This document shows, in pieces, positions 11,991 to 62,500 of a stretch of DNA of 64,000 nucleotides (positions within the stretch are counted from its first letter, which is position 1; each line of letters begins with the position of its first letter). The stretch lies in the NCBI GenBank assembly GCA_964430735.1, contig CAYSFB010000008.1, positions 12,870 through 76,869 of the forward strand, read 5' to 3'. The DNA comes from an uncultured Planctomycetia bacterium (GTDB taxonomy: Bacteria; Omnitrophota; Gorgyraeia; 2-02-FULL-51-18; JAGOUK01). A program made the translations under genes and the position numbers. The notes under the pieces are model-generated. The model saw only the letters and a list, made by a program, of their open reading frames with translations, was not told where the DNA came from and searched no databases.

Positions 11991-14900
11991 TCCTAAGCGT
12001 TCTATTGAGCATCGAGCCGGATGGAGCCCGGCTGGCCGGGACTGACGCGGCTGTCGCACACACCATCCGGATCCAGAGTTCCGGTGATCTGGAATCAGCA
12101 ATCGTCCGCCGGTTCGCGGTCTACAAAATGGGTTCCGCAGACGAAGCCGAACGGTTTGCCCGGGAATTGGCGCAGACCGTCAGAACCCGTTATGCCGCTG
12201 AACTGGCCCGTGACCGCGGCCGCATCGTGATCGTCACGCCGCCGAGGAATGTGGCGGGTTCTCCGATCACGGCCGTCGCGCGCAGCGTCGCCGCGCAGTT
12301 GGGATTGCCTTATGTCGAGACTTTTGAAGAACCGCTGGAACCCGGGCCCACTTATATCGGCGTGAGCAGCGCCCGGGTCCGCGAAAAACTCGCGCGCCAG
12401 ACGGGATTAATCCTCCGGCCCGAGCTGAATCTGGCCGGCAAGAAGATCCTGATCTTAGACGACATGATCACGACCGGCACGACGATCCGGGCGACCCAAA
12501 GCAAACTCGAAGAGCGTTTCGGGACCGAAGACTTCATGGTTGCGGCGATGGTCCGGCTGGAATCGTCCGACCCGGCGGACGAAAAAAACGTCAGCCGTTA
12601 TCTGGCGGACCGGAAAGACTGGGATGCTGTAGTGGAGATCCTCAACGACCCGCGCACCCGCATCGGCAAATCCGTCGTCGAAATGTTCACCGCACTCAAC
12701 CCGGACATGCGGATCGGTCTTCTGGCCCAGCTGACGGACGTCGCGGTCAAAAAACTCCTCCTGTCGACGATGCTGTTCGACCACGGAACCCGGTCCGTCG
12801 ATTGGATGCAGACGCTCTGGGTCCGGATCGCCCCTGTCGCCTGGTCGTCCTCCGCGCACCCGGCCCTCGAAGACGGGTATTGGTCCGAAGAATTCCAATC
12901 GTGGCTCGACCGTGCCGCCGCGTCCGAAGCGGACCCGGTGCTGCTGGAACAAATGATCCTGCTGCTGGAATTCGTCCATCGCCGCGAATCGATGACACGG
13001 CTTGTGACAATCGCGGACCGATTTAAGGGAAGCTTCGTCGGGACTCAGGCGACGGATGCGCTCAACCGCCGGGTGGAGCCGGTATCGGAAGACGACGTGT
13101 ACGACGTATTTGAGCATTTCCGGTATCCCAAAGGATTGCAATCCGGACTTGCGCGGCCGGACGGAGAGCGGACGATCAGTATGAAGTTCCTGGGAGAGCC
13201 GCGTCAGGAGCTGAACGCATCCTTCGCCGGGTCCGGCCGTGATGGGCATGTCTCAAGGATCGTGACCCTGACGCCGGATCCGGACGGGACCGTCATGGCG
13301 AAGCCCAAAGAGCGGATCATTTTTGACGCGTCCTGGATGAAGCTGAGGCCTGATATCGCCAATGGCGCGGTCAAAGGGATCTTTTTGAAAAGCGCGGGCG
13401 ACCGCAGCGGAGACGTCACGGCGCGCATCGTCGTCGACGACCGGATGCTCGATGTGTTTCCGGCCCGCGCCGGTAGGGATGGGATCATCGAGTGGAGAAT
13501 CGAGGGACTTTCGGAAGCGCTCCGCAGAAAATCCGCGACGAACCAATTCTTTTTCCGGAACTGGCAGTTCCAGCGCCGTCCGGAGGCGGTCGCCGGGGCC
13601 AGACTCGCGACGGGAGAGGCGGGCGCCGAAGCGGCGGAAGTCGCGGCGTTTGCCTTTACAGGAATCGACGAAGAAAAAATATACAGCGACCCCGACGCGC
13701 TTGAGGCCATCGCTCCTTTCCGCATCCGGGTGTTGAAAAACGGTCAGGTCCACTTCGGAAGCCGCGACCGGGGCCGTCTGGAGAAGAGCGTCATGGCTCA
13801 CACGAGCATTCCCGAAGGCGAATGGCTGACGGTCACTCCGGAGTACCGCCAGCAGCTGCCGGCCGGACTCGACGCCCAGTGGATCCTGCGTTTGAACCGA
13901 AAAAGCGGAGCGCCGTTGTATTACCGTTTCGTCAATACCGGAACTTTTTTGAAAAAGCTCGACCTCTCGGCTGGCGGATTCTTGGGATCGTTCTCGAGAA
14001 TCGGACGATATAAGGACCGGTCGCTGCCTCCGTTTCCCCAGGATGAATTCTCGGTGACGGTGCTCAAGGGCGGAAACGCCAATTTTGCGAGCTGGTCGGA
14101 TACGCAAGGTTCCGGAGATGCTGTTATCCGCCGTCTCAGGATACGGCTGGGCGACGAGTACGAAGGCCTGCCGGTTCGGGTCCGTAAGTTTTTTGTGAAT
14201 TCGCAGTTGAGCGAATGGCTGCTGCTGGTGCTCAAGCCTGCCACCGGAACCGCGCCGGAAACGGGTGATTCAATTCGCGGGCGCATGCTGGTTTACCGTT
14301 TTGTCCGTCCGGGCCGGATCGAGCAGATTAAACGCCACCCGTCCGGTGACGAGCAATGGTCCGCCTTTCCGGGGCTTGACCAGGCCGCTGCCCAGTTCGC
14401 TGTAACCGCGTCCCCGGGTGACGGGGCCCGGTTGGCCAAGTCGGGGAATGCGGATGACGGTATCGAGTTCGCCGAGAAATGGTTGAGGAAGTACGCGTTT
14501 TTGTCGAGGCTGCGGATGTCGGATGTGGAATGGCGCAAGGAGGAAGGGGAGAAGTTGGCGCGGGAAGCCGCCAAAGCTATTTCTGAAGTCCACGTGATGA
14601 TCCGGCATCGGTTGGCTTACGATGCTCAGGGGGTTGAGTTGAAGCCCGTCGTTTCGCTCCGCGGCCTGACGCTCGAGCCGAGCGTGGACTATTGGACGGC
14701 ATGGGCCTCCGCCGCATCCGACCACGGCGAGGAGCTTGGTGTTTCTGACGGATGGAAACAGGCGGTCCTGGGCGCCATCACCGTTTTGTCCTGTTATCAA
14801 GACAACCACGCCCATCTGAAGCATCAGGGCGGCGAGTCCCGCCGGAATTACTACCGGTCCGTGTTGGCGCTCGACTCCGCGCGGCTTGTTCTGGATCCGG

Positions 14901-17900
14901 CGAGCCGTGGAGTCCGGATCGACCTCGCACACGCCTTTTTCCACAACAAAGAGTATGTCCAGGCGGAGAAGCTGCTCGAGGACCTTCTTTTAAGCGATAA
15001 AACGAATCGGACTGCGCTGGTTCTGACCGGTTATGTGCGGTTGGAAATGGCCGCGCGCGCCTTGAGCCGGATGGAGCGGCAGCTTGAGCAGGAGAAGTAC
15101 ATGGACGCGCTGGAGTCCTTCGCCCGCACGCTTCGGCTGCTGGATGCGGCTCAGGAGCCGCTGCGCAAGGCCACCGATCGCAGGACCTTGAACGGACCTC
15201 GGGGGATCAAGAGCCTCGCGCGGGCCATGTCCGGGATGGCGCTGGTCGCCATGCGAAGGGCGGAAGCATACCGTATTTTGTCCGATCGTCCGGAGGTGCG
15301 GGGGGTCGCGCAGCCGCGCTATCGGTCTGTCGTACATTCGATCAGCGCGCTCGAACACGCGTTGTCCGCCCTCAACGTGAATGGAGCCGGCCCGGACGCA
15401 TTGGGCCACAGCTTTGGGATATATCGCGATATCGTTGTCCGCCTGGCCCGGGGATTGGACGCATCCGCGCTGGACCGGATCGATCCGGCCCGTTACCAGG
15501 AATTGCGCGGCCTCATGGTCCGGATGAAGGAACTTCTGAATTCCGCTCCCAACGATGACGTGCCGGCGCGCAAGCGCAAGTCTGCCCGCGGGAGCCATTC
15601 CGTTCAGACAACGATCGCCGACTCGATCTCTGTGCTGTCGGCCGTCTGCGTCGCCATCCAAACCTCGCTCGATCGCCGCGACGAAATCAAAGAAAAGCTC
15701 AACAAGGCCGTCTTGCGCGTGCTCCATGACCAGCATCCGGAAGACCCCGCATCATTTGAAGCGCGCGTGGCCGAGGATTTTGCGGCGGCGATTCCCGTCG
15801 CTCAAGTCTCTGAACGGGAAGCGTGGATCGCCGTGGCGAGAAGCCATTTGGAGTCGCTCCATACCACCCGCGAGGACATCGCGCTGGCGGGGTGGCATCT
15901 CCTTTCGGATTCCGGAGACAGAACCTTGGAATCTCTATCGGAGATCTCGGGCATCGAAGCATCCGTGGTCGCAGAGCGGTTCCGGTCGCCGTTCTTGAAG
16001 GAAGTTGGTCTGGCGTTGGAGGAAGAGTCTTCACCGCCGGACGCGGACGTCAAGGTGTCGCCCAAAAAATATACACAGGATATGGCTATTTATAATCTGG
16101 GTGATATCAAGTCGTTTCTTGCCAGCGATGTCTGGATCCGGCCGGAACCGGATGCTGCTGATGTGCACACCATTCCTTCTGCGAAGCATATCGAGCGGAT
16201 GTTCCGGCAGCTCCGGCCTTGGCTTTCGTTCAGATCGCCGATTGACTGGGACCATCTGAGCGCGATGCGAAAGCGGATGTGGGAACAAATCGATCAATTC
16301 TTTGAGCTGGCGCCGAGCGCGTTAAAAAAGAATGCAGAAGATATAGACACGCTTCGAATGAACCTGACCCATTTAAGGCGAGGGACAGACGATAAGCCCG
16401 GTTATTGGGTCCGGGCCAAGGAGCTCATGGACCGGCTTAAGCGCAGGCAACAGACTATCGAGGATCAGATCCGCGCGGGCATCGGCAAAATCGATTCGGA
16501 TTTGACCAAATTGCGGGCGCGAAACAACGTGTTGCGCATCGGCTACCTGGACGAATTGATCAAAGGTCTTGAGCTGCGCCGCGCACGGCTGAACGGGCTC
16601 CTCGATCCGCAGGACCCCGGCTATCTTCTGCCAGAGCATTTTGATGAACAGATGCAGGCGGCGCAAGCCGATCGCGAGTTGGTACAGCCGCTCGAAGCGG
16701 TGGAGGCCTCGCTCACGCGCGTGCGGGATCTTGAGTGGGAGGTCGATCGGCAGGTGCATCAGGCGGCAGAGGCCGCCGCAGCAGCCGATCTTCCGGGAAC
16801 TTCCGCCGCATCCGCTGTTGTCCGGCGTCTTCGGACGGAGATGAGGCAAGTGGAGCGGATGTTTCAAAAATACGCGCTGCGCGCGGACTCGGAAAAAAAG
16901 ATGAGCCAAATCGAAGGCCGGCTCGGTCGTATTCAGCAGGAGGCCGTGAGAATCCGTCAGGCGCTCGAGCGCCGTTCTTCGATCCGTGAGCGCATCAGCC
17001 GCATCCGGCAACAGGCCGATGCCGGAAGACCGCTCCTCCAACCGTTGACTGAATGGTGCGCGAAAATCGCCCGGCAGACCGATCGCATGGACGACATGCT
17101 GCGGGACGCGGACCTTGCCGGTGATAGGCGGGAAGACGGTGAAGCATACTCCGGACGGCTTCAGCTGGTCTTGGAGGAGGTCGATAGGGTCGAAAAGGAA
17201 GTCGACGAGATGCTGGCCCGGCTGGGTCAAAAGAGCGCAAACGCCATGAAGGCGAGCCTGGTGGGGGTGGAGCTGATGGCCGCGCTGCTCTGGCAGTGGA
17301 GCGAACAGGCGTTTCCGGGTACAACCGCGCATGCCCGGCGCTTCACGACGGCGAGCTGGAAGCTGCGCGAAAAGATCGAAAAATTAAAGTCCCAGTCGGA
17401 CCGGGGATGGATCGATCCCGGCCTCAGGGAGGAGATTGATATGGCTTTTTTGATGTGCTTTTTGGAATACGTGCGGGCCATGAACGAGGAGCATGATCTC
17501 CTGATCGACAAAGCCAAGCAGCAGATTCTGCAGCTCACGAAGCAGCTCAAGAACAGGATCGCCACCGGTCCGATGAAGTCCGAAGAGATCGGGTTGTTTA
17601 CCCTGACGTTGACTCGGGTTCACTACTTGGACCTGCCGTCCGACTTTGAGCTCGTCCTTTATTCGGACAAGGAACAGCGTCAGAGGCTCAGCGAGGAAGG
17701 GCATAAGGCCTTCATCAAGAAGCTCAAGGCGATGCCGGTCCATGACAACCCTTTTTTGCAACAGTTCGAAGACCGCTGGCAGTACCACGGGCCCGAAGGG
17801 TTCGAAGAATCGTTTGCCTATCGGGACTTGCTGCACGGGCTTTGGATGACCGTCGTGTTTTACATGGACGGGTACGAATCCGCCTCCGGTTCCACAAAAC

Positions 17901-20900
17901 CCGTCCATTTTGCGCATCTATTTCCGGAGGCCGTACGCCTGAAGCAGCTCAATGTGATCCGGCGCCGGATGATTGGAGCGGATGCCGATCGAGTCGGTGA
18001 CCCCACGATACTTTTTCCTGTCAACAGTCCCGAACAGCTTCGTCTGATCATGCAAGTCCGATCAAGCACCGATCGGTTTCTGGAGAATCTTTTTCCCGCC
18101 TTGGATGAGGATTTGGGGCCGGCGGATCCCGACCGCATGCAGGAGGCGCGGCATGTCCTGGACCGTATTCTGACCCAGACTCAGGAGAATCGGGGAGCGC
18201 GGCTGGCGCGTGACGGGCTGACCCTGAGCGCGGACGCGCAGGGGTTGGACGAGAACCGCTTCGCCGCCGCGTGGGTCGATCCGGCGTCCGTCGAGCTTCC
18301 GATACTGCTGGCGTCCGAGGCCGGGAGCTGGAAGGCGCTTTTGTCCGCGGCGCCGCGAAGTCAGACGGATTCGGGGGACGATGACCGGCGGCGCGAGTTG
18401 TGGATGCCGGGCGATGCGCCGGTCCCCGGAGCGGACGGCATCCCGCTCAAGCATCTGACCTTTTCGAGCAAGGCGCTTCTTCTGTGGGAGTGGAAAAGCC
18501 GGTATCCGGAACTTTTTGCCGGGAATGCGCCTCAGATATTTAAGCAGCTGGGTTTTGACCGGGAGGGCGTGATCGAGTTTGCGGACCCCATCACCCGGTA
18601 TCGTTACCGGATGCCGGCGGTTCCAACCGCACGGGGAGGGATGAACCTTGTTTTTCTGGCGGCTGCGGGGCATCAGGTTCGGGACGCAGCCGGCGCGTCC
18701 ACCGAAGAACACGGACGCGACGCGGCGGTGCTGGTGCCCATCCGGCCCAATCAGGGCTGGCGGTCCAGGGCCGTGGCAGAAGTCTATGACGCGCTTCATC
18801 CCTACCGCATCAATGAAGTTCAGGTCCCGCATGACCGGATTCCGCAGCTGATCCAGCTGATTCCGGCGTCAAACGCTCCATTCGGCGTGGACGCGGTCGC
18901 GATCGAATATCTCGACCCGGGCGGGTTCATGGAATCTGTTCGCGACATGCAAACCCGGCTCACCCAACAGTCGCTGGAGCGGAAGCTGGGCATCCGGATG
19001 CGGTTCTCGCTGGTTCTTGGCGCGGCACGGGCATTGCAGATGATGCATGAAGCCGGCGTGATTCACCGCGACTTCAAGCCCGAGAATGTGCATTGGGACG
19101 GGGATGACGTGAGAATCGTGGACTTCAGCAACGCATTCGTTTACCGGGCGCCCTCTCCGCTGGCGATCCCCGGGGCCCAATCCCGGCTTCAAACCATGCG
19201 CCTCATCGAACCTCTCGAAAAACAGAAAGGCATGCTGGGGGGTACGCCCCGGATTCTGGCGATCGACGGGACGGTCACGCCGAGTTTTGTGGAGGGGTCG
19301 GCCTTCCTGGAAGCGACCAAGCGTTTTGCACATGACCCGTCACAGGACAAGTTCGCCTTTGGACTGTTTTTGGCGCAGGCGTTCGGGATGCATGCGACCG
19401 GAGCGATGGATTCAAGAGAGTTAGATTTGCGTCTGGAATTGCTGCAGTCGGATTTGGAGCGCGCGGGTGAGCAGGTCAAATGGCCGGCGGACCTGTCGGC
19501 GGTCGGCCTGATCGGGCTAATCCGCCGTCTGCTCGACCCGGCGCTCAAGGCGCAGGACGATCTGGACTGGAAGGAAATCATCGATACACTGCAGGGTTTT
19601 GCTGGCATCTACGGGACGAGCCGTTTTGTGCCGACCGAATTTACCGCGGAGAAGCTGCCCGGAGACAGGTATTCGCAGGGTTATCGGGGCGGCGGTACGC
19701 TGGCTCTTGACCCGCCCGGTCTGCCGTCAGATCCCGGTTCAGGCGCCCGGCTTGCCAATGGCAAAGGTCTGGATCCATCCGAGGATGATTTACGCGATAT
19801 GTATACGGCCGCTGCGTTCGGCCCGGATTATCAGATCCATCGGACGCTGCGTGCGGGTCCGATTGATACCGGGATTTTTAAAAATTCCTATGACAGGATT
19901 TTTTCAAATATGAATTTTGGTCCGGAGCAGAATTTTTCTTCCACACTGACGGCCCGCGTGAAGCTTCAGAAGCAGTCGGATCCGAGCCGTCCCTGGATGT
20001 GGCTGGACGTCGGTCCGGGCGCAGGCAATGCATTGAGGGAGGGGATCGAGCTGATCGAGGAAAAAAGTCTTAACGGCCATTATCGGGCCTTGGGCGCGGA
20101 TATCGTTGACCATCGGAGCCGTTCCGGAAGATCCGCGCCGGCCGCCGGTGATTATGGATTCATCCCGCTTCCAGGAGGTGTCGAGAATCTGGAGGTTCCT
20201 GATGGCGCCGAACCTGACCTGATCACCGCGGTCCATGTGCTCATGTACGCAGACGATCCGCTTCAGGCGCTAACCCGCTTGTACAACGTCTTGCGGCCCG
20301 GCGGCGAATTGCTCGTCACCGTCAATGCGATCCATGTCGGCAGCGCTCCGTCAGCGCTTCCGATGATGAATTCGTGGGAGATCGGCAATTGGTTCAGCGG
20401 ATACGCCAAGGATCTGAATTCCAAGGGAATCGCAAGCGCGGAGCTCATCGGCGACGTGCTGCGCATCCGGAAGCTGTCCGCGGACCGTGTCCGGCTCTCC
20501 ATTTCCGCAGATGAGTCATTTGAGCCCTATCGGAACCAGGAAGGCATCCGCATCATCCGATACCGTCCGGCAGATCCGTCACAACCCGGGGTTCTTGAGG
20601 TCGTCGGACCCGGCGCGCGGTTGGCTCAGGCGGATTCGGCTCGGAATGCGATGGCTTCGGTGGCTCGATACGGATTCGTCCGAAGAGGGCTTGAGGCCAA
20701 AAAAATCTTTGACCTTCAGCTGGCATCGACCGGACCCGTAGATTCGGACACGGCCGGAAGGATCACCGGACGTCTGTTGGAACTCATCAAACAGTCTGCG
20801 TTGTCGGCGGGCGATAAGAAGCAATTCCGGCGGTTTTCGGATATTGTTGAGAGTCTCGAGTATCATTCGATTGACCCGGTGTCGGCAAGTCCTTCGGATT

Positions 20901-23900
20901 ATTTGGCGGCACTGCACGATCCCGCTAAAAAAATTCTCTATCTCCCGCAGATATGGATCGATGAGCTGACGAGCCGCACTCCGGCGGACGCCTTCGACGA
21001 GGCCTTGGTCCGGGAGATTTTGTATCCGGCTCAGCGCGTCGCCGTTTTGGGCGGCAGCGGCAAGGTCGGCCGCCGTATTGCGGCCGAGCTGAGGCAGGTG
21101 TACCCGGACGTTTCGGCTGCATCCCGAAGCGGCGGATTTGGGTCCCAAAAGCTCGACGTGACGGATGATGCTGACTTGGCCGGATGGATCGACCGCATGC
21201 GTCCGGATGTAATTGTCTACGCCGCCGGGATCGCAGACCCCGACCGCGCCCAGCGTGATCCTGAAGCCGCTCAATTGCTCAATGCCCGAATACCGAAACG
21301 TCTGCGCAGCCTCACGCGAGCCAGACTCATTTATCTTTCGACAGACAACGTCTTTGACGGCCAGTCCGCAAAGCCCTATCACCCGAAGGCCCGCCCGCGG
21401 CCGCTCAAAGGCATGGCTTATGGCCAAAGCAAGCTCGACGGCGAGCGCGTCACTTTGGACGGATTACGCCACCGGAACGCGGTGCTTCGGCTCGGTCTCG
21501 TCGTCGCCGAAGAGGATGTTGAAAAAATCATTCAACAAATCCAGGGCTCCATGAGCGGAAGCGCTCAGGCGCCGACCGTGGACGGAAAGCGAAAGCGCTA
21601 TCCGGTCTGGGTGGATGATGTCGCTTTGGCGGTGCGGGACCTGGTCGCGAATCCGAAAAAGGGGATTTACCAGCTGAACGGCGAAAAGCCGATAACGCGG
21701 TTTGATATGGCGAGGATCGCGGCCGTGGAATTGGATCCGGAGTCCGGCGATCAACACGTCCTGGCCGGAACGACTGCGACGACGGCCGCAATCCAAGCGC
21801 CGCGTCCGGCGCATGTCCGCATGGAGAATAATCTGATGAAGCCCCGTCCCATTGAGGATCAGATCGTCCAGACGACGAAGCTGGCCGCGCACAACGGGCC
21901 CGGCGCATTAGCCCGGCTTGACCGCGCCGTGCGGCTCCGGGACGGGAAGCTGCTGCGTGAAGCGATGGGTGAGCTCGACGCGCTTGGAATTCGCTGGACG
22001 CTGGCGGGGCCCGTCGGTGCGTTGGAAGATTGGCCGGAGGCCCCGCGTGTCGTGGATACCGGCGATGCAGCCGCAGTATCCCGCGCGCTTTTGGACCATC
22101 TCGTGACTCCGGACACATTCCGCGAGGATCTTGCCAGGGCGGTCGAATCTATTCTGATGGAAGTTCCTTTGGATAGGGTCAGAGTGATGGCTGCGGTTGT
22201 GGATGAGCGGGCCGACGAGTATTGGGTGAATCCGGAAATGGGCGTGCGGACTTTGAGGATCGTCTCGACGGATTTTGTGTATCGGGGGATCGGGATGCGG
22301 TACTGGATGAGCGTCTCCCAAAATGGGATTCCGCATGGGTTCGGTCCCTTCGGACCCTATCGGTCGATGTTGCTTCCCTTGATCAGTCGAATGCCTGACG
22401 GTTCGAGCGCGCCGGCGGAAGAGGTGCTGCAAGGCGGCTCCATGAGCACCGTGGTGCGCGTTCACGAATCGGATCGGAGCACGGTGATCCGTAAATCGGC
22501 ACCGGCCGGTTGGCATGCCGACAAGTTGCGGGATGAGGCGCGTTACATGCGGATGCTCGAGGCTACCGGAATTTTTCCAAAGGTATACGACGTCCAATCG
22601 TCTGACGGGGTGCGCAAAAATCCCCTGTTCAGGCGTCTTTTGGAAAATCCGGCCGCGGCCGCTTGTTTGCACCAATTGATCAAGCTTGCGCACCAAATTC
22701 CATGGCTGAGGCCATTGGCCGGGATGCTTGAGCGATGGGCGGCTCAGCCGCCTGTCCCTAAAGGGACTACGGTCTGGATGGAGGACCTGAAGGGCTATGA
22801 ACAGCTGACCGAAGTGTCCCGTTGGGCCCATTTGGGATTCAAGCGGCCCGAAATCAAGAGCAGTTCGATCGACGACCGCACGATCTATCGTTCGGACTGG
22901 GATATCGCTCTCGACATCTACCGGTCGCTGATCCCTATTTTTTACGGAGTTCAGTCAGCTCAAACGCCGCCGGACTTCCTGCGCAAGTATCATTTTGAGA
23001 AGCTGGAAACGCGCTGGGCCGAGGCGCGGGCGCGGTCCCGTCAGCTGGACCTCGTCATGTCCGCGCCTTACATCAAAGACCCGGATCGCCGATACGGACA
23101 ACTGCTTCCCAACCTCCCGCTGGCCGCGCAGGCGGCGGAGGCGATCGCGTCGTATGACCCGGAAGCCCTGCTTCCGCCTCATCTGACGCGCGAGCACGGG
23201 GACCTGCATTTTGGCAATATTCTGATCCCGCCGGCGGATTACTTCCGCCGCAAGCGGATCGAAAGTTTCCGCCTCATCGATCCCAAATGGCTGCCGAACG
23301 GGAATGACCCTCTCTACGATTTGGCCAAACTCATGCACAACAAGTACGGCTGGTACGATCTCGCGCTCAATCACCACGATTCGTTTTACTTCGGCATGAG
23401 TGTGCCCGAATCCGGCGGGCCTGCCGAATTCCATTGGAACTTTGACGACGAGTCGTATGCGGGTGATCGGATGAGGGACGAGTTTGGAGCTGTGCAGGAC
23501 TTCAGTCAGCAGTTCGAGGAGTGGATGCGCCTTCCGGACGATGATCCAAGGGTCCGGGATATGGAACGCTTTGGTTTGAATTGGCGGACGCGGCTCATTT
23601 TTACCCACGCGTCCCTATTGGCCGGACTTCTCAACTTCCACGTTCTACCGGAAGATCCGCAGTCCAAGATCAGCGTGATCTACTGGCAGGCGGCGACGCA
23701 ATTTGACCGCGCGATCCTTCATTTGATCGGCCGTGAAGAAGAGTATCGCCATCAGACGGGCCAACGCCGACTGCCGGACGATCTGTACACACCGCTGAGA
23801 ACGATGGTTCTGCTGCAGCGGGTCTACCAGCAATCCGATTCAGAAGAGGTCAAAGCCGCTGCCGAGCACCAGTACGTCGCGGCCATCAACGATCTGCGGC

Positions 23901-28789: not shown

Positions 28790-28831
28790 AAGGCGATTGA
28801 CGGAGCGGTTCTGCGCGCCTAGACTTGACGC

Positions 28832-29320
28832 ATGCGCCGCTTCCAGCTTTTTGCTCTCACATTGATCCTGTCGATTGCCGCAACCGCGTCCGCCTCGGAC
28901 GAAGGCTCCAGCGGCGCCATCGAAACCTACTACCCCAACGGCGCGGTCAAATCCCGGGCGATCTACAAAGACGGCCGTCTGGAAGGACCCTATGAACTTT
29001 TTTCAAAAGACGGCCGGCTTCAGGAATTCCGGACGTACCGGAACGACAAGCTGAACGGTCCGGGCCGCCGGTATTTTGCCGATGGCCGGATTGCCGAAGA
29101 AGTGAGCTATGCCGACGGATTTTTGGACGGTCCCTACAAACAGTACGATTCCAACGGCAAGCGGCTGATCGAGGCCGTTTATCAGCGCGGCAAACCCGTG
29201 ACGCCGCTGCGCGTGTATGGCGCCAACGAGGCGTTGATCAGCGCAGAACATTATACGATCGGCGAAAAAGCTCCCAAGCCCGCGGCCCGTCCCGCCCCCA
29301 AAAAGCAAAAGCGTCCCTAA
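28832..29320 (+). CDS. Secreted MORN-variant repeat protein (YwqK-like)
   Basis: Signal peptide 'MRRFQLFALTLILSIAATASA', then repeated 'YxNGxxxxxxxYKDGRLEGPYELF / YRNDKLNGPGRRYFADGRI / YADGFLDGPYKQY' units typical of MORN_2/YwqK repeats. Confidence 0.55.
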   Translation: MRRFQLFALTLILSIAATASASDEGSSGAIETYYPNGAVKSRAIYKDGRLEGPYELFSKDGRLQEFRTYRNDKLNGPGRRYFADGRIAEEVSYADGFLDGPYKQYDSNGKRLIEAVYQRGKPVTPLRVYGANEALISAEHYTIGEKAPKPAARPAPKKQKRP

Positions 29321-29333
29321 ATATCCAGTTACG

Positions 29334-31121: not shown

Positions 31122-31122
31122 T

Positions 31123-50370: not shown

Positions 50371-50407
50371 CTTCAAAGTAAACCAACAAAAAATATAGAA
50401 GGTCGCC

Positions 50408-50436
50408 TTGAAGGCAGCTTGTGCCGAGGGTATACT
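50408..50436 (+). promoter_or_regulatory. Candidate sigma-70-type promoter for giant gene 3 (TTGAAG-N17-TATACT)
   Basis: TTGAAG at 50408-50413, a 17-nt spacer, then TATACT at 50431-50436, about 85 nt upstream of ATG 50523. No terminator separates giant 2 from giant 3, so co-transcription is also possible. Confidence 0.35.
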
Positions 50437-50522
50437 CCCCACAAGTTATTTACTTTTTCACGGCAGTGCTTTGCCCTCTATTCAAGGGCTTATCACAAGT
50501 CATAAAACGACGGGATCATTTG

Positions 50523-53500: not shown

Positions 53501-56500
53501 TTTGTACGCGGAACCGCAGAACAGCTGGGACGCCGCCGTGGACCGCACGATACGCAACTTGAGCCGGCGGATTTCGCTGGAAAAGATCGAACAGGGACTT
53601 GAAGGCGAACTGCGGAACAGAAACCTGACCCTGATCTCCGCTGTAGGATCTCCCAACTGGGGCGAAGACGGTGCGACGATCGACTCGCAGCAACAGTTCG
53701 GAATTTTTGAATTCAATTACGCGACGGGAACCGGCCGGGTCGTTAAGGACTATAAGGACGCCGCCGGTTTGCTGGCAGACCGCGAGCTCACCGCGGGGTT
53801 GAAGCCGTCTGCAGCCGGCCGGATTCAGGAATTCGTCCAGCTGCGGTTCGCCAAAACGAACCGGCCGCTGACCCAAAAGTGGTCGGACCGGTCGTTTTGG
53901 GTCCGGATCGGCAATGGACCCGCCGGTTCCAGCGGCACGACGCTTCGGTACCTGTTCCGTTATGATCACGACCGGTATCTTATGACGGACCTCGACGGGG
54001 AAGAGGTTCTGGGCTATGCCGACCGCGACGCTGTGACCAACAGCGGATTCAAATCGTTGTCTGTGGACTTGAGAGAGTGGCTCCGGAACCGCGAGGCCTT
54101 CATTGCCGGTCAGCATCGCGCTTATCCGGATGCCGCCGCCAAGGATCCCAAGGCGCTTGATGCGATCACCGAGATGAACTTCATGGTCGCCGGAGACCGG
54201 AATAATCCCGTCTTCTTGATGTCCGCCCCGTATGAAGATACGGTGCCTTCCAACGGCGGCGTTTATCGTCCGCTGATTTACGCCCCGCACTGGGACAGGC
54301 ATTCCGACGGGACATTAAATGCCAGGCCGCTGCAGATCCACACGAATCCCGCCGCGATCGTCGCCGACATGGAAGGGGATGAGCGCAGCATCGGGAACGG
54401 AGTTGAGCGGCGCGTGGCGCCCCCCAAGCGCGCGGCCGCTTACGAGGCCGTTTCCAAGGCGCTCGAAGGCGGATACTACCTCCGTCAGGACGCGGCGCTG
54501 GTGCTGGGTAACGAGCAGCTGCGCGGAAATATCGAACTTTTTGAATACCGGGGCAAGGATGCCGCCAAGTCGGCCGATCAGATCCTGAACCTTCACCTGA
54601 GAAAAATCCGAGCGCACCAAAGCCGCTTCCGGTCGTCGACCTACGGCGAGATGGCGGAAAAGCTGAAGTCTGAGGATCCGGCCGAATGGCGGAATCTGGA
54701 TCGGCAAATCCGCGGCTGGTGGCGCAAGACCGGGGAAGCCAAACCTGCGGCTCCGGCCGTCCGGGCAGTCAGCGATAGTTTGCTCAACCTCAATGAGCAG
54801 CAGGTCAGCGGTCTGCTCAACCGCTACGCCGATGATACCGCCGAATCCGGCATCATCTACGAAGAATTAGCCGGCGGAAAAATTGTCCCTGCGTTCATCC
54901 GAATTCCCGGCTGGTCCTACTCGGCGCGCAACGTTCACTTCGCTTTACTCAAGCCTTTGGCCGAGGAGCTCGACCGCCGCGGCCTGGACAGCTCCAATGT
55001 GCTCAGTCCCCAGGTCCTCGCGCACCTGCTCGAAAAAGTCCGCCAGCAGCGCCTCGACCGCGCCCGCCCCGAAGGCGCGGGCGCGCGGTTTGCGGCGGCA
55101 TCCATCGTCCGCTTTGCGGCCGATTTGGCATTGGATCTTGCGGATGCGGTGCGAGCCCTTTGGGTCGGCTGGACCCTGCCGAAGGATCCCGCGCTTCAAA
55201 CAGAGAGATTCCTGGACCGGATCGAGCAGGAGCCCATCGTTCTGCAGGCAGAGAGCGAAGAACGCGTCATCGCCATGGCCAGACGGCATCTCCGCAGGCT
55301 TATGGCCGGCTATAGTCTGGAAGCCATGCAGCAGATTCCGGCGGGAATCACGCATACGATCGACCGGGACTCCCCCCGGACCCAGTATGGCCGTCCGGAC
55401 GCTCTCAACCCGGAACACATCATCACCGAGAATCATCCGATCCTGACGATCCGCCTCACGGACGCCGAGTCGTTGAGGCGTAAGGTCCGCAGGAATGGCG
55501 CCATCGTTTTCATCGGTCCTCCGGGAGCGGGCAAGGGCGAGCAATCCAAGTATCTCCGCAGGGAGTTCGGCGCCGCTGTGATCGGCCCCGGCAACTATTT
55601 CCGAGGTGTCGACAAGCTCAAGGAGCTGGGCGGCGTCGATGTTCCGAATGACCCCAATCTGGAGTACTTCGACGAAGCGGCGCTCACACAGATTTATCGC
55701 CACATCCAGGGCATCCTCGACCGCCAAAAAGCGGATCTCGCCGACATGAGAAGCGGCGGCCTCATGAAGGACGATTCCACGATAGAAATCATCAATTATC
55801 TTCTTTCCTTCGACGTCTTTGCCAATGCGCCCCTGCTGGTATTCGACGGTTTTCCGAGGACGACCGGGCAGTATGATGCCATTCTCGAAGGCCGGGTGAA
55901 GGTCGGGGGCCCCCAGGGGCGCGCGCTGAAGATCGGTGCGCATATCGTCATGAATTTTTCTTCCGATGCAGTGATGCGGGAGACGATTGAGCGGCGCTTT
56001 CGCCGCCCCGACCGAAGCGGCCGAGCCGACGCGGACAAGGAGATCCAGAGAGCCGAGACCTACAACCGTGAAACGCGGCCGATTGTCGACTTCCTTCTGA
56101 ATCGGCCCAACACCATCCGCCTCTTTGCCGACGACCGGCATCCGACAGATCCCGCCGCCAGCATCCAGCTCGCCACAAAGGAGCTGGAGGATGGACTTCG
56201 AGCCATTGTCAACGGCGCGCGGTTGGCAGAAGGCGTCGGAAATTCGGACTTTAATTTGCTGGTCCAACATGCTGGAACCCGGATTCGTGATACGGTAGAA
56301 GCGCTGCAGTTGTCGGACGAAAAAGGACTTGCCGACGCGGATCATGAGGCGGGGGAGCAGCTTAAAAAAGTATTCGAAGTTCTCTACGCGGGAAATGTGG
56401 AAATTCTACCGGCGGCCCCAGGTCACCATACGGACATCAAGTTCATCAAAGGAGAGAACCCCAGGCGGCAGCTGCACATTGAGTTTCATCCCGCCGATGC

Positions 56501-59500
56501 GCAGAATGCGGAGCGCGAAATGGCCCGCCAGCTGGTGCGACTCGGAATGCTTCTTTTGGTTCTAGACCCATCGGTGCATAAGACCTCCGAGGCCATCCTC
56601 AATCTTCAGAGAGATCGGTTCATGAAGGCGGATATTTTGCTCACGCGCACTCGGTCATCGCACCAAGACCCGCCTTTTTCCCGCACCGACAAGATGAAGA
56701 TCGAACGCGAGATGTATCAGATCATCCAAATGACGGATGAGGAGCGTGCCGCGCATGAGGCGATGATCAAGGTTGCGCAGGCCGAAGACCGTGCCAAAGC
56801 CGAAAGACAGCGCCGGTTGGATGTCGCCGCCGGAAAAATTGAACCCCACGTTTCCTCGGCTCTCAGCCTGTACGTGAGTCAAACCACGCATATGATCGAA
56901 AAGACCCGGAGTCTAGGGGTTCTTGAGATTTCCTGGATGGCGTATGCGCCGGACGTAGTTAAAGTGATGATGATTTCGGACAGCGCGGGCCGGCAGGAAG
57001 CGCTCGCGGATCTCATGGCATCCATCATCAATGCCACGATGCAGGCGGCCGCGAAGTCCGGGCTTTGGGAAACGCCGGGACGGGGTGCCAAGTTCGATCC
57101 GATCCAGGTGCAGGAGTTGTTGGAGAACGTGGCTCAGGGATTGATCAATTTTGCACGGTCGCGCCGTGCGGCGGGCGAAGAACCCACGGATATCAAGACC
57201 CAGCTTCTTTCCGCGGCCGATTTGATTGTGCCGAACGAACAAATTTACTCCTACCTCCGTACGCCACGGTTCAACCGGTGGCTGCGTGATGCCATCGACA
57301 AGCGAAGCGTAAAAACGAATGCCTCGGATACAGTTGCGAGTGCCTCAGGGGCGGCAGAAACGGTCAAGCAAATCATGGGAGCCGTCGCGATGGCGGCGGC
57401 CAGGCCCGATTCGGCCGGTGTTCTGCTCATCGGAAGCACGCGGACCGGTTCTAAGACCCAGCTCGCGTTGCCAGCGCCATCGAGTTCGATCGCCTCGGCA
57501 TCACCCGGGTCCACATCGGCAGCCGGCCGCGCTCAGGCCGGCATGCCCGCGGCGGGATTGTTGGATTTTGTCGGAGACGCGAGAGGATATGTTTTTTCAT
57601 TCGAAGAGGGATACACGGCCAACCCTGACATTCTGGTCCCGGCGATGTCTCACGCGCTTCAGGCCGCCAAGACGGTCGAGCAGTGGCTCGCGCAGCCCTC
57701 GGACGAGTTTATCGGTGGACTCAGAATTTCTGAGCTTCTTCAAGCCGAAGACGGGCGGGTGGGACAGATCGGCCGCTGGCTCGCCTATGTGGCTTCGCTG
57801 TATTTTTACCCGAACACGTCGGCTTCCGCTGACGACGGTCGCCGCAGTCCGGGCACGATCGAAGCGGCCTGGAACGCGTTCAGGAACCGCTCCAAACTTG
57901 TCACTGACGACACCTTGATTGAAGCCATCGAGACGATGAAGAGCGTCAAGAACAATCCGACCGTCTACAGCAAAACGGAGCTGTCCTTCGCCTGGTACGT
58001 CGCGTTCTTGATCGCTTCCTATCTCGAGCCTCTTCAGGAGTCAGAAAAAAAATCCGCGGCCGAAGTGATCGATAAGACTCTCGTTGAAATGGGCGAAAGA
58101 CCCGATTACGCGGTTTTTCAATTGATCCGGGTGATCGTGGTTCAGATGCAAATGAAAGCCATGAAGTTCGACACGTCCGTTCAAACGGAAAAGCCCAAAG
58201 CGCGGCAGGCGGCATCCGCTGCGGACACATCCTCAAACCCGCAGTTTGAGCCGATCGCCGAAACCGCCGTGGAAGCTCCCCGAGGCGTTCAGGCCTTGAG
58301 GGTGACCAATACGGAAGCCAGCTTTGAGGGATTTTTGGCAAGAGTCTCAGAAATCGGTTCGTCCGCCGCCGACGCGCTGGATCAGGAAGACACAAAGATC
58401 GCGATCCCCGTGCTGCGTTTACTCATCGGCGGACATCTTGATGCCGATCCTGACGACAAGACGGGCGACTACCAAACCACGCTCCGCAACGTCAAACGCA
58501 AGACACATCCCGACATCGTCACCAAGGACGAGACGCTGGATGCCACCGCGCGCGAAACGCTGGTGGCCATGCACAAGGCCCTGAACGTTATCGAGACCTA
58601 CGTTGATTCTCCTTTGAACCTCAAGGAAACCAGGTCGGCGGTCAAGGAGCTGCGTCAAACGGTTTCCAAGCATCTTCAGTGGAAGTCCGAGATCACTCAG
58701 CGGCTGGCGCAGTCGGTCGAGGAGCGGCACCGGGAGCTGATCGAAGCGTTGAAGCAAATTGGCGAGCAGCAGAATTCCGGCATGAAGAACGTTGGCGAAA
58801 AACTGGACGCATTGACCCGTCAAATAGACGAACTGGTCAAAACGGGCCGGTCGAACTCCGAGCAGCTGAGCACTTTGTCTCAGCAGGTCCAGGAAATGAA
58901 GCAGCAGATCCGGTCGTCGGGAGAAACTCCGTCCCAAGCCGGCGCGCGGTTTGCGCAGAGCGACGCGGCTGTTGTTAAAGTGTTGTATGCGGCGCCGGTG
59001 ACTGAGAAGACCCTGAAGGCTGTGAATGCGGTGCGGACGATCGCTCAGTCGTTCGGCGGTGCGGCAGAGTTGGTTGAAGAATTTTCTGAACAAGCAGATG
59101 AGGCGTTTATTCGGGCGGCGATCGAGAAACACCGTCCCGCGATTGCAGTTTTCCGTTCTAACGTCACGTTCACTCCCGAGCTGATTGCGTTCGCCAAGCA
59201 ACACGGCGTGCAGGAACTTCTGCGGGCGGGAGCGGGTTACGACAACGTGGACTTCGAGGCCTCCGTGCGCGAGCAGATCAGTCTTGCGACCACCGGCGGC
59301 AACGCCGAGGCGGTCGCGTATTTGAGTATGCGGTTCTTGCTGGCGGCCCTCGGCGGTCAGGAAATGACCGCTTCAGACGTCGATTTTTCGAGCGATCCGG
59401 CTTGGTCCGAAGTCGGACATGATCCCGCAGACTTCACCAAGGCGCTGGCCTCCTCCGAAAAGGCGGGTCGCGGCGTGATGCCGGCCGATCAGTCGGCCGC

Positions 59501-62500
59501 GGTGTTCAAGAACCTCTCGGCGGACCAGGTCAAAGAACTTTTTGCGAAGCTCGAAGGAAAAACAATCAGCCTTCTCGCCTTCGGACCCGTCGCACAGGCG
59601 TTCGCCGCCAAACTCCAAAAGGTCAGGGAATTGACCGGTGTCAACTTCACGGTCGTCGCGTACTCGCCGGCTCTCGCGTCCGGAGACCCGTCCCGCGCCA
59701 AGGCCGCGGCCGAGCTCGGAGTGCAAATCGCGAAGACCAAACAGGAAGCGATCAGCGCGGCCAACGTCCTTTCGATCCATTATTTTGACAAAAATGATCC
59801 GGTGACCGCCGCCGAATTGGCCGGTAACGCGGGCTTGGAAGTCGTTCTGAACACCGCTCGGCTCCACTCGCTCGATCTCAAGGAAGCCCTGCCGGCGCTG
59901 CTGGACCGCGGCGTGCGCGTCTACACCGACGCCGATCTCGCCAAAAAGGGCGCTGAGCTGCCGGAAGTCGCGGAGTTCAAGACCAAACACCCCAATTATG
60001 CGCAGAACCTGATCCTGGTTCCGCACATCGGCGCGTTCACGCAGACCGCGCTCGACGGAGTCGAAGACGCCCTGCGCGACGCTCTCATTCTGTCGCTTGC
60101 CAAGCTCACCGACGAAGAGCCGACGCTCGCGGTGACGCCCGGCTTCACGCTCAACATCGTGAATAAGATTCCGCTTCTGTCGCCGACCCAAATTGAATGG
60201 AAGAAAGGTTATGATGCCGCGCGAAAAATCATCGCCACGCGGTCGATGCATGCAACTTACGGCCGCAATGCGGACATCGCGGCCCGCGACTATGGCAAGG
60301 CGGGCGATCCGCTCAGCCAGGCCTACTGGTCCGGCAAGGCCGCCGGACACCGCTCGATGGCCAGCGGCGGCCGGTACACCGCTTCCGGCGCGCGCCTCGC
60401 CTCCAAAGCCGCAACCGCCAAGTTCCTGGCTGCACTCGAGCCCTATCGGATTGCCGGTACAGAAAAGGCCCGAGCCATCCAAGGCAACTACACAAAAGCG
60501 GCCAACGAGAACCTAAATAGTTACGTGCCGCGTCCTAAAGGCAACGAATCGGGCCGCTATATCGCGCTCGACTTCGGCGGCACCAACTTCCGGGTGCTGA
60601 TCGTCGATATGAAGAACGGCAAGGTCATCCGTAAAAAAATCCACCCCTTGACGATTCCAAAGCAATTGATCACAAGCGATTCCAGCCAGCTCTTCGGTTT
60701 TATCGCCCGCGAAATCAAAAAAGTCATGGCGAAGGAAAAGTTGAGCTTGGACACCGTTCAGAACCTCGGATTTTCGTTCGCGTTTCGCGTGAAGCAGATC
60801 TCCATCGACCGGGGGACCCTGGATCATTGGACGAAGGAATTTAAAGTCAAGGGCGTCGTGGGCGAGGAAGTGGTCGGGCTCCTGAACCAGGCGCTCGAAG
60901 ATGAAGGTGTGAAGAACATCCGCGTCAGAGCTCTCGTGAACGACGTGATCGGAACGCTCGTGACGCGGCCAGATGCCGCGCTTGCCGCGATTCTGGGCAC
61001 CGGCACGAACGGCGGATATTGGGACGAGCTGACTGGATTCGCCGTGAACACCGAATGGGGTGCATTCAAAGGGGCCTGGAAAGTCGCAGCCACCGAAGCG
61101 GACCGGATCGTGAACCGCCGCTCCGAGAAACCGGGTAAACAGCTCTTCGAAAAGATGGTGAGCGGAAAATACCTCGGCGAAATCGCCAGGACCCAAATCA
61201 ATCTGTTGCGCAAGGACGGATTCTTGAAAGGCAAAGCATTACCGCGCCTGACCCGTCAGGGCGGTGTCACGACGACGATGCTTTCGAAGATTCTCGAGGA
61301 CAGGACCAAAACACTGGCCCAGGTCGGCCGGTATTTCCCCGGAACGTCCGCGAACGAGCGGAAAGTGATCCGTGCCGTGGCTCACGCCCTTTTCACCCGT
61401 TCAGCCGACCTCTTCGTCGAAGCGGTTTACGCCAACCTCAAGCTTTCCGGCGCGTACGCCAAGTCCGACGAACTGATCGTCGCGATCGACGGGTCGGTGT
61501 ACAGCAAATCGAAGTTTTATCGGCGGCAGGTCCGCCGCGCGACCCGTATTCACATGGCGCGTTGGGGATCCCGCCCGGTGCGCTATGTCCAAACGACCGA
61601 CGGCAGCGGCCTCGGTACGGCCCGCATCGCGGCCATCGCTTCCGCGGCCGCGCGCCTTGCGAATTCGAACCCGGCTGATTGGCGCATTGACGCGGTGGAG
61701 CATCTCAACAATGCCATTCGCCGGATCAAGGCCTCGGCCGCCCAGCTCAGAGCCCAGGCCCTGATACTGGAGAATGTGAAGGATAGGGATGCCAACTTCA
61801 CTGCCATAAATGCGGACATACTGGACCATCATGCGGTCATTCTGAGTAAATTGCTGGGGATCTTGGACAAGACCGGTCATCAGCATCAAAAGGCCACGGA
61901 TCCGGTCGTGCGATTAATGATCCAGGAAGATTCAAACAGAATTCTCCCCGCGCTTGAATCGATGGCTTCCAATCTCAAGGGGCAGATGTCCATCTTGGCT
62001 GATGCGCCGATCAATACTGGGGAGCCCGCGTGGCGGACCGGGCTCAAGGACGCCATGATCGACCTGATTCTGTTGGAGGCTGTCATATCCAACACCTTGA
62101 TCAACAAGAGCGAGACCGTCCCCGTGCAGGGCGAGTGGAGCGTTACGGTGTTGAGCCATGGGCCCAAGCAGCATGTGTTGATGATCCGGTCCGGCGACAA
62201 GATTGTCTGGCGGCATTACGTTTGGCTTGGGGATTATGATGATATCTCCATTTTCACGAAGCGGAATCCGGCCAAGCTGGTTGCGGGGGCGCTGTTAAAA
62301 AATTATAAGACCTGGTCGGTTGTTTCGCCTGTGAATGAAGCCGGGTTCGCTGAGGCCGTACAGGGGATTCTTGTGGCTGAGTTCGGAATGGCGCTTCGCG
62401 GCACGTCCGGCGCCCGACTGGCTAGCACCGGTAGTCTGGCGATCGCGCAGGGCGTTCTCGAACCCTATTTGAAGAATGTTGCGGCAGCGATCAATCTGCG

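Follow-up and report, generated by a model that had tools for sequence, protein, structure and literature searches.

What does a short peptide do when it returns again and again in giant proteins that otherwise have hardly anything in common? The question is raised by a locus of an uncultured Planctomycetia bacterium of the Omnitrophota lineage (GenBank assembly GCA_964430735.1, contig CAYSFB010000008.1), of which we analyzed one stretch of 64,000 nucleotides, hereafter the window. Three very long + strand open reading frames (ORFs) dominate it: giant 1 (G1, 10337..28789; 6150 amino acids (aa) from a TTG start), giant 2 (G2, 37246..50370; 4374 aa) and giant 3 (G3, 50421..63371; 4316 aa from a GTG start). 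Each encodes a signal peptide, a TIKI-like N-terminal domain (N-domain) and a C-terminal tail, and they contain 11, 7 and 9 copies, respectively, of a pentapeptide that we call the junction motif. A preliminary description of the window had noticed this peptide in the form [GA]AR[LF]A, regarded it as a signal at the boundaries of embedded enzyme modules, and proposed that it is a proteolytic processing site, a docking or recognition linker, or a footprint of module shuffling. We determined (i) whether the motif recurs beyond chance and lies at module boundaries, (ii) how widely it is conserved and with which other features, and (iii) which of the proposed roles agrees best with these data. All coordinates below refer to the + strand of the window.

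The junction motif recurs far beyond chance

The pattern [GA]AR[LF]A occurs 25 times in the three giants, whereas 2000 residue shuffles of the same proteins gave 0.36 on average and never more than 4, so that the enrichment asserted earlier is borne out by an actual shuffle test. GARLA is the commonest 5-mer of the three giants (14 observed versus 0.115 expected from composition), and the family consensus described below, [GA]-[AS]-R-[LMF]-[AST], is found at 27 sites. All 21 coordinates given in the preliminary description carry the pentapeptide reported for them, in frame, in three + strand ORFs. The list was incomplete, however, having missed four sites of its own pattern (27830, 39031, 55080 and 61647), and it is also without two sites that match the family consensus (GARLS at 26681 and GSRLA at 47497).

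In G1, the first junction past the N-domain is the GARLA at 12023..12037 (aa 563), which is followed by GARLA at 13595..13609 (aa 1087), 14423..14437 (aa 1363), 18194..18208 (aa 2620), 19742..19756 (aa 3136), 20612..20626 (aa 3426) and 23936..23950 (aa 4534), by the newly added GARLS at 26681..26695 (aa 5449), and by GARLA at 27500..27514 (aa 5722) and, again new, at 27830..27844 (aa 5832). The last copy, AARLA at 28721..28735 (aa 6129), lies within the C-terminal tail; 17 residues come after it, rather than the 19 previously given. G2 begins its series with GARFA at 38962..38976 (aa 573), which forms a doublet with the previously missed AARLA at 39031..39045 (aa 596), and continues with AARLA at 45439..45453 (aa 2732) and 46324..46338 (aa 3027), GSRLA at 47497..47511 (aa 3418; also absent from the earlier list), GARLA at 48382..48396 (aa 3713) and AARLA at 49291..49305 (aa 4016). 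In G3, AARLA at 52194..52208 (aa 592) and 52284..52298 (aa 622) precede GARLA at 53403..53417 (aa 995). An adenylate-kinase module starts at the newly found GARFA at 55080..55094 (aa 1554) and ends at GARLA 56214..56228 (aa 1932), a 2-hydroxyacid-dehydrogenase module starts at GARFA 58941..58955 (aa 2841), and a hexokinase module starts at GARLA 60387..60401 (aa 3323) and closes with AARLA 61647..61661 (aa 3743), another addition; GARLA at 62409..62423 (aa 3997) is the last copy. The sequence of a motif-bearing linker is PGSGARLANGKG.

Doublets of the motif, 9-30 aa apart, are frequent, chiefly right after the N-domain (G2 38962-39045 and G3 52194-52298, as well as the related giants P0208, P0220 and P0130).

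As the preliminary description had stated, the motif is written with a variety of synonymous codons: 26 of the 27 window sites have a distinct 15-mer, with a moderate bias toward GGC-GCG-CGG-YTG-GCG. For the window and the related loci together, this bias amounts to 45% CGG against a background of 21% and 60% GCG against 38%, with all synonymous codons in use; it could be due to site age, mutational context or a translational effect.

The motif lies at the boundaries of unrelated modules

The positions of Pfam domains, homology between giants, the natural ends of hexokinases, a local dip in hydrophobicity and conservation across the family all bear out the claim that the motif is a peptide-level signal at module boundaries. 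All 27 window sites lie outside Pfam domains. Pfam matches in G1 comprise a phosphoribosyltransferase module (12188..12628), a protein-kinase or APH-like catalytic-loop match (19007..19150), an S-adenosylmethionine (SAM)-methyltransferase module (19988..20332), an RmlD/NAD-epimerase module (21035..21841), an APH-type phosphotransferase module (22427..22735) and a sigma-70 region-4-like helix-turn-helix (24848..25000). G2 has a second SAM-methyltransferase module (45649..45939), and G3 has a P-loop/adenylate-kinase module (55512..56096), a 2-hydroxyacid-dehydrogenase-like module (59136..60032; weak matches) and the core of a hexokinase module (60504..61637; Hexokinase_1 and Hexokinase_2). Several intervals between motifs are of the size of a single enzyme: the methyltransferases of G1 and G2 lie within intervals of 290 aa (motifs at aa 3136 and 3426) and 295 aa (aa 2732 and 3027), respectively, the adenylate kinase within 378 aa, and the hexokinase within 420 aa. 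The median spacing from motif to motif is 275 aa.

The largest uncharacterized unit of the window is the 2136-aa stretch of G2 at 39046-45438 (aa 597-2731), which has neither a junction motif nor a Pfam match. A relaxed motif, [GAS][GAST][RK][LMFIV][GAST], was tried for splitting such long intervals and was rejected, as its additional matches were at chance level.

Outside the N-domain the giants are almost wholly unrelated, with only 42 high-scoring segment pairs (HSPs) among 85 giants. Where a module is shared, the ends of the alignment coincide with motifs in both partners, at unrelated positions in the two chains. Thus, residues 2416-2955 of L036 (motifs at 2426 and 2957) correspond to 650-1199 of L038 (motifs at 660 and 1215), residues 3571-3922 of L042 (motifs at 3570 and 3916) to 632-970 of L078 (motifs at 571 and 964), and residues 3346-3747 of G3 (motifs at 3323 and 3743) to 996-1393 of L078 (motifs at 964 and 1389). 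HSPs that span a motif number 10, versus a mean of 24 (minimum 17) with randomly placed motifs, and the median distance from the end of an HSP to the next motif is 16 aa, versus about 215 aa with random placement. Moreover, bulky hydrophobic residues drop from 32% to 14-24%, and do so only from position -6 to +12 of the motif. The first motif also stands at a characteristic distance from the N-domain: counted from the His of the conserved GGYH, it follows after 60-120 aa in most of 67 relatives (median 96 aa), and after no more than 160 aa in 56 of them.

The hexokinase module of G3, the only module that we modeled, allows the boundaries to be placed more precisely. The AlphaFold2 model, built from an alignment of 59 free-standing hexokinases, has a predicted local distance difference test score (pLDDT) of 87. 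The upstream GARLA lies directly before the first helix with a pLDDT below 50, and the downstream AARLA (G3 aa 3743) occupies residues 454-458 of the query, the C-termini of free hexokinases aligning to residues 451-458. The preliminary description had the module enclosed by 60387 and 62409; the start agrees with our data, whereas the end does not, since it is the overlooked AARLA at 61647 that closes the module (aa 3323-3743). Likewise, its expectation that structure prediction would place the motif in linkers holds for the disordered upstream copy but not for the downstream copy, which is predicted to be helical. The module (60402-61646) retains every residue that is invariant in 60 aligned hexokinases, contains no cysteine, and shares 31-39% identity with free enzymes about 445 aa long (among them P0029, from an Omnitrophota metagenome-assembled genome (MAG)) and with the halves of vertebrate HK2 and HKDC1. 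Judged by these residues, it is probably active.

Motif and N-domain together define a large protein family

Scanning one genome per species, we found 284 stretches that code for relatives of the N-domain, and kept 79 loci. Nearly all of these are in MAGs labeled Omnitrophota or 'uncultured Planctomycetia', with one in an Eisenbacteria MAG, and there are often several per genome. In the 82 N-domain ORFs of these loci GARLA is by far the most frequent 5-mer (158), followed by GARMA, GARLS and AARLA. An exhaustive HMMER search of 1.84 billion cluster representatives detected the N-domain in 8,831 of them, 4,230 at E <= 1e-30; in all of the 150 best hits listed the domain is N-terminal, and the lengths among these reach 7,364 aa. 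GARLA again heads the 5-mers (230) in 136 independent cluster representatives, in which the consensus motif occurs at 658 sites versus 24 expected, with at least one site in 112 of the 136. Word-indexed protein searches, by comparison, returned a single protein for the N-domain and none for a 50-sequence profile, and a scan of N-domains and C-terminal tails against NCBIfam gave no match. The giants are an undescribed protein family, for which neither Pfam nor NCBIfam has a model.

Position-specific frequencies at 367 family sites define the motif sharply: position 1 is G (80%) or A (20%), position 2 is A (93%) or S (7%), position 3 is R, position 4 is L (80%), M (17%) or F (3%), and position 5 is A (76%), S (19%) or T (5%). 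Information is confined to these five positions, with faint preferences at -1 (A/S) and +5 and nothing beyond, as expected of a protease site or a recognition site. The observation that S or G usually precedes the motif is only weakly true, position -1 being A in 22% and S in 20% of the sites. Where the motif varies, it does so conservatively (G>A; A>S,T; R>>K; L>M>F>V; A>S>T), and it is retained between proteins that are less than 35% identical. It is also specific to the giants: in their frame the density is 2.0 per 1000 aa versus 0.11 in other ORFs of the same loci, where other long ORFs have none or one, and the few outside matches are giants whose N-terminus lies beyond the locus.

Some members depart from this scheme. 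The closest relative of the G1 N-domain, L001/L031 (P0001, GCA_964532445.1), has Phe in place of the otherwise invariant Asp of D-x-H (RFAH), and its last ~150 residues, rich in Arg, look as though they were translated out of frame; the gene may have decayed, or the assembly may be wrong here. Two long, low-cysteine ORFs, L067 1562-6010 and L015 6582-11345, adjoin family giants and have no N-domain match. The former has an ...SA-type C-terminus and no strict motif, and the latter has two motifs and extends past the end of its locus; they may be divergent members or continuations of the neighboring giant.

The shared N-domain is a predicted TIKI-fold hydrolase

The only region common to the giants is the signal peptide together with the N-domain of about 500 aa. 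By BLASTP, G1-G3 share only their first ~550 residues, at 28-31% identity, with no similarity among them outside the N-domain, and self-BLAST found no internal repeats. The domain spans 10460..11971 in G1 (DAHTN at 10604-10618, Glu120 at 10694-10696, GGYH at 11771-11782), 37345..38910 in G2 (DAHSN at 37519-37533, Glu at 37609-37611, GGYH at 38698-38709) and 50607..52100 in G3 (DAHTN at 50745-50759, Glu at 50835-50837, GGFH at 51957-51968). In an alignment of 50 N-domains D-x-H-x-N, three Glu, one Arg, one Lys, R-D and GG[YF]H are invariant, and a regular-expression search detected D-x-H-x-N, a Glu at His+28 and GG[YF]H in 190 of 190 giants, as well as in the three of the window.

The catalytic residues of RRSP are E3900-x-H3902, E3930 and H4030, and those of Bcr135 include H85 and E113 (PMC6254334). 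The His-to-Glu spacing of 28 in the N-domains (H92/E120 in G1, H94/E122 in G2, H111/E139 in G3) is that of RRSP (H3902 to E3930) and of Bcr135 (H85 to E113). An AlphaFold2 model, built from an alignment of four sequences (pLDDT 74.8), is an alpha/beta fold with a central parallel sheet flanked by helices, the signature residues at strand ends and a helical insertion of about 290 residues. Fold comparison gave Bcr135/136, TraB, HopBA1, EreC, ChaN, RRSP and PMT as the best structural matches (scores: TraB protein 8.9, HopBA1 8.8, EreC 8.5, ChaN 8.3, RRSP 6.9, PMT 6.2), and the best Foldseek match is EreC. At the sequence level the relationship is barely visible: no curated Pfam model matched the window N-domains at threshold, DUF5694 was touched, below threshold, by 7 of 50 members scanned singly, and a profile search of PDB sequences gave chance coiled-coil matches only. 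On the strength of the model, we regard the N-domain as a predicted TIKI-fold hydrolase with an intact catalytic-type signature. The preliminary description had put the N-domain forward as a possible cutter of the motif; fold and catalytic signature accord with this, and that the hydrolase would be a protease is what we infer from them.

Motif variants are specific to genomes

Using a slightly wider site pattern for the related loci, we counted M, L and F at the fourth position for individual genomes. CAYSKO (M 17, L 1, F 0) and CAZHID (M 16, L 7, F 0) prefer Met, whereas DATJEK (M 0, L 39, F 1), CAYODQ (M 1, L 45, F 1) and the window (M 0, L 24, F 3, from its 27 consensus sites) prefer Leu. 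Leu sites that persist in genomes with a preference for Met mostly have the codon TTG, a single mutation from ATG.

Single giants also keep to one variant. P0208 has GTRL[AS] 14 times and no GAR[LMF], and P0220 has mainly GTRL[AS]; P0163 has GSR[VAI] 12 times, and in P0130 only G-S-R is kept. Judged by these sequences, the invariant core of the motif is G/A, a small residue and Arg, the residues past Arg being free in some lineages. If the motif is cut, this modestly favors a scissile bond next to the Arg.

The giants have features of exported proteins

By inspection, all three giants begin with a signal peptide: a Sec-type sequence in G1 (10376..10459; MPGLLNNLIRLISLVLVAAFGLQEVAWA, followed by VP; hydrophobic segment from aa 17), one ending in ...FLRRLISISLCLSFGAMELAWA, followed by GP, in G2 (37246..37344), and MKALGVSRLRVTSFILCMTFVAQDAAFA, followed by AP, in G3 (50523..50606). 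These consist of a basic residue, a hydrophobic stretch of about 12 residues and A-x-A; the R, L and A-x-A residues are conserved among paralogues. Beyond the signal peptide, Kyte-Doolittle analysis shows one marginal peak each in G1 (aa 1756, 1.64 versus a cut-off of 1.6) and in G2 (aa 1147, likewise just above the cut-off), and none in G3.

Cysteine is nearly absent, with a content of 0.06-0.09% versus 0.8% in neighboring genes. The window giants have 14 Cys in 14,840 aa; both Cys of G3 are in the N-terminal leader, the absence of Cys from the hexokinase module compares with a mean of 7.8 in 100 free hexokinases, and the Cys fraction of the relatives is 0.0006 over 336,000 residues. This suggests passage through, or work in, an oxidizing compartment, or translocation in an unfolded state.

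At the C-terminus of complete giants, about 35 residues form a conserved amphipathic segment, after which the chain closes with A-[VI]-x-x-[AS]-A-COOH. In the window these tails are ...AARLAESVAHLIRSLAAAAVAA-COOH (G1, 28682..28786), ...LRALNMALDAVKSAA-COOH (G2, 50263..50367) and ...LVYLQGLRKATVDTAA-COOH (G3, 63264..63368), and an AA or SA terminus is found in 100 of 146 representatives and in all three window giants. The tail looks like a C-terminal sorting, secretion or degradation signal; Escherichia coli HlyA also ends in ...TASA. Because signal peptide, low cysteine content and conserved tail occur together, these sequence features point to export of the whole chain.

Many giants have an R-[LM]-[AS] copy of the junction motif 8-11 residues before the C-terminal end. 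We considered whether cleavage yields C-termini like the natural ...[AS]-A end and rejected the idea, since position -2 is G in the motif and A/S at the natural end.

Gene calls and genomic setting

Apart from the called start, G1 is identical to the database protein P0124, and G2 and G3 are P0122 and P0123. P0124 (6109 aa) starts at the Val after the A-W-A site, and so is without the conserved signal peptide. The true start of G1 is likely the ATG at 10376 rather than the called TTG, and that of G3 is likely the ATG at 50523, as in P0123, which fits better than the upstream GTG. The giants, P0123 (G3) among them, are recorded on contigs from two environmental sequencing runs and are therefore real genes rather than assembly artifacts. 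Around them lie ordinary chromosomal genes, for oligopeptidase F, RsmB, PntA/B, an amino-acid permease, an SF1 helicase, an ABC-F protein and a pseudouridine synthase.

Proposed processing of an exported polyprotein, and its alternatives

In the mechanism that we favor, the giant chain would be exported and then cut at the motifs, so that the modules would be freed as separate proteins. The TIKI-like N-domain would be the best candidate for the protease, cutting its own chain and probably sister giants as well, and the scissile bond would most likely adjoin the invariant Arg (between R and [LMF]), or alternatively lie between [LMF] and [AST]. Given complete but unrelated enzymes, a five-residue motif in short exposed linkers between them, a hydrolase at the head of the chain and features of export, processing of a polyprotein is the most economical explanation. 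The N-domain is the candidate protease because it is the sole common region, because its D-x-H, Glu and GGYH are invariant, and because no neighboring gene, a protease gene included, is conserved in the 79 related loci. Of the three roles proposed in the preliminary description we thus favor the proteolytic one, and we consider the motif likely to be a cleavage site. For the fuller proposal, in which the pentapeptide serves as a short linear recognition motif, placed in brief exposed linkers that separate the cargo modules of exported giants, and the polyprotein is cut by the N-domain, we see about even chances.

Several observations weigh against this proposal. Some intervals are long or contain several domains, such as the 1108 aa that hold both the RmlD and the APH module of G1, which lie in the same inter-motif interval, and the 2136 aa of G2; a unit can thus comprise more than one domain. 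The AARLA at G3 aa 3743 is modeled as the last turn of the final helix, with a pLDDT of about 90, and not as a disordered linker. About 10% of family members are without the strict motif. The Pfam match of the N-domain is below threshold, with Cofac_haem_bdg ('Tiki superfamily, ChaN') found in 14 of 50 members at a best E of 0.0015. Proteins of the TIKI fold are not all proteases, ChaN binding heme and Ere being an esterase. The case for cleavage is built from sequences and predicted structures.

The variants of the motif bear on the identity of the cutting enzyme, as they follow the genome and not the lineage of the N-domain. The paralogous N-domains of one genome belong to different old lineages: those of G2 and G3 are 43-50% identical to N-domains in other genomes and only 30% to each other or to that of G1, and the L019 N-domain of the Met-preferring CAYSKO is closer to a protein of the Leu-using DATJEK than to its own paralogues. 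Nor does any N-domain column covary with L/M usage (maximum mutual information 0.34 versus 0.36 in the label-shuffle null). Taken together, these sequence comparisons indicate that whatever reads the motif does so with a genome-specific preference. Such a pattern argues against each N-domain reading only its own tail, and fits either N-domains that work in trans and accept L as well as M, or a separate, shared factor.

Such a factor could be an unlinked protease common to all giants of the cell, for example a subtilase or some other protease of the periplasm or cell surface, or one supplied by prey or host, with the N-domain doing some other job such as anchoring, ester hydrolysis or cleavage of a target. 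Uniform variants (L versus M; A versus S/T) across the paralogues of one genome, despite their different ancient N-domains, and the lack of a covarying column are what this alternative would lead one to expect, and an Arg-containing site would suit many serine or cysteine proteases. A partial S8 subtilase is in fact encoded at the window edge (1-1047), and the preliminary description had named the product of 1..1050 as a possible processing enzyme. That suggestion finds no support, as no counterpart of the S8 gene was detected in about 1 Mb of flanks of the 79 related loci, and no other protease gene is a conserved neighbor there. Conversely, the N-domain, with its intact catalytic-type signature, is the sole invariable companion of the motif, and the first motif stands at a fixed short distance past it. 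We consider an unlinked protease unlikely.

A docking or recognition element that is not cleaved, or a hinge, would leave the giants as intact multi-enzyme chains; the motif might then bind an export chaperone or the translocon, or its Arg might be modified. A binding partner shared by the giants would suffice to account for a conserved, exposed boundary motif with a genome-specific variant, and the helical prediction for the AARLA past the hexokinase module and the commonness of doublets 9-30 aa apart can be read in the same sense, as can the view of a 2026 preprint that Omnitrophota multi-enzyme giants are single membrane-associated proteins. Nothing in our data, however, points to a binding partner. 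A 5-mer of the type small-small-basic-hydrophobic-small exactly at the natural termini of complete enzymes has the look of a classic processing site, and at the head of every chain stands a hydrolase domain whose catalytic signature is conserved. This second of the previously proposed roles has some probability left, but we do not expect it to be the true one.

Much less probable still is a signal at the level of nucleic acid, be it internal translation starts at the fourth codon (ATG, TTG or CTG) or, as had been proposed, a DNA footprint of the recombination that shuffled the modules. The fourth residue is L, M and occasionally V, with codons that include bacterial start codons, the NTG share of Leu codons at the motif is 65% versus a background of 42%, and the bias toward GGC-GCG-CGG-YTG-GCG is in line with such a signal. 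Yet translation cannot start at CTC, CTT, CTA or TTA, which make up 29-35% of the Leu codons, nor at the Phe codons that also occur; the upstream codons are not Shine-Dalgarno-like, and AGR is not enriched among them. A shuffling footprint, in particular, is disfavored by peptide-level conservation across proteins less than 35% identical with nearly every DNA 15-mer different (277 of 349 in the related loci, in addition to the 26 of 27 in the window) and with flanks that carry no information.

That the motif recurs merely because the giants have a high content of A (10-13%), L (10%), R (7-10%) and Gly, or because of cryptic repeats, can be dismissed, as 25 sites far exceed the 4 reached at most in 2000 shuffles, the three giants share no similarity outside the N-domain, and two independent sets of relatives both have GARLA as their commonest 5-mer.

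Comparison with known systems

Polyprotein processing as proposed here has its nearest analogue, in logic, in autoprocessing toxins of the MARTX and TcdB type, in which a built-in protease cuts after Leu and before a small residue in disordered interdomain linkers (PMC3153235). The putative sites of the giants likewise have L, M or F and then a small residue, at boundaries. The giants are not members of that family: no C80 cysteine protease domain (CPD) and no RTX or glycine-rich repeats were matched by Pfam in the three of the window. MARTX and clostridial toxins have an internal cysteine protease domain, whereas the candidate protease of the giants is of another fold and N-terminal, in chains almost free of cysteine. 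The MARTX CPD reads essentially P1 and P1' only, in contrast to five constrained positions with an invariant Arg, and MARTX toxins have 3-4 sites, as opposed to 7-11 per giant. The giants, whose cleavage we propose, differ further in their N-terminal Sec-type signal peptide, their largely metabolic-type enzyme cargo and their uncultured Omnitrophota-type hosts.

Within the TIKI/TraB/PrgY/Ere/ChaN superfamily the N-domain is alike in its predicted alpha/beta fold and in the signature acid-x-His...(28 aa)...Glu...His at strand ends. It differs in that the first acid is Asp rather than Glu, in the helical insertion of about 290 aa that splits the fold, in its fusion to thousands of residues of cargo and in the lack of a Pfam or NCBIfam model at threshold, and its activity is a putative one. 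TIKI1/2 and PrgY, like the giants, have a signal peptide followed by an extracytoplasmic catalytic domain. TIKI1 reportedly cuts Wnt3a after Leu8 and before Ala9, which we take as a lead only and not as evidence.

Viral polyproteins are similar in being one long product with a short junction motif between unrelated units and a protease-like domain in the chain, and in having motif variants that drift between lineages and are uniform within one. The giants, by contrast, are cellular and chromosomal, with many paralogues per genome; they are apparently exported, their units are almost all different, and they would be processed in the manner proposed above.

Multi-enzyme giants and Archaeovorins of the Omnitrophota have been described in a preprint (West-Roberts et al. 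2023) and in a 2026 complete-genome preprint, which reports 176 complete Omnitrophota genomes. The present giants resemble them in phylum-level hosts (by the titles of the related loci), in the many enzyme Pfam domains that tile one polypeptide, and in signal peptides. The preprint giants are at least 10,000 aa (10 kaa) long, this being the cut-off for entry in the catalog of the 2026 preprint, and often have many transmembrane helices and C39, S8 or SecA domains; G1-G3, in contrast, are 4.3-6.2 kaa, with a TIKI-like head and no clear hydrophobic segment beyond the signal peptide. Both preprints ask whether giants are cleaved, and the 2023 preprint calls the cleavage points unknown; the main Omnitrophota giant-gene study states that neither the occurrence nor the sites of cutting are known, a gap that it says blocks structural analysis. 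Term searches of both preprints found no passage on junction or cleavage motifs, on linkers or on TIKI; cysteine content and C-terminal tails were not among the terms. Literature searches for 'GARLA' gave only surnames and unrelated matches among those listed, and searches that combine Omnitrophota with polyprotein, autoprocessing, TIKI or cleavage-motif terms gave no Omnitrophota paper among those listed.

Implications for the giants and their hosts

The junction motif provides exact candidate cut sites, the first concrete ones for these giants, and a rule for dividing them into units for structure prediction and annotation; its Arg provides a mutational handle. If processing takes place, the principle of polyproteins and autoprocessing toxins would extend to free-living or predatory environmental bacteria, bacterial TIKI-fold domains would gain a proteolytic role, and there would be reason to think that whole metabolic enzymes are delivered to other cells. 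Carried to its full extent, a view that we hold tentatively and with more doubt than confidence, this would amount to phylum-wide polyprotein export, a bacterial equivalent of viral polyproteins and of MARTX toxins with a protease of another fold, and a new route for the delivery of metabolic effectors. Thousands of cysteine-purged, Sec-exported giants might cut themselves, in cis and on sister giants, by a TIKI-fold protease, and thereby set free, beyond the producer cell, dozens of cytoplasm-type enzymes (hexokinase, adenylate kinase, nucleotide-sugar enzymes, methyltransferases, kinases and sigma-like DNA binders), which would most plausibly end up in or on cells of prey or host.

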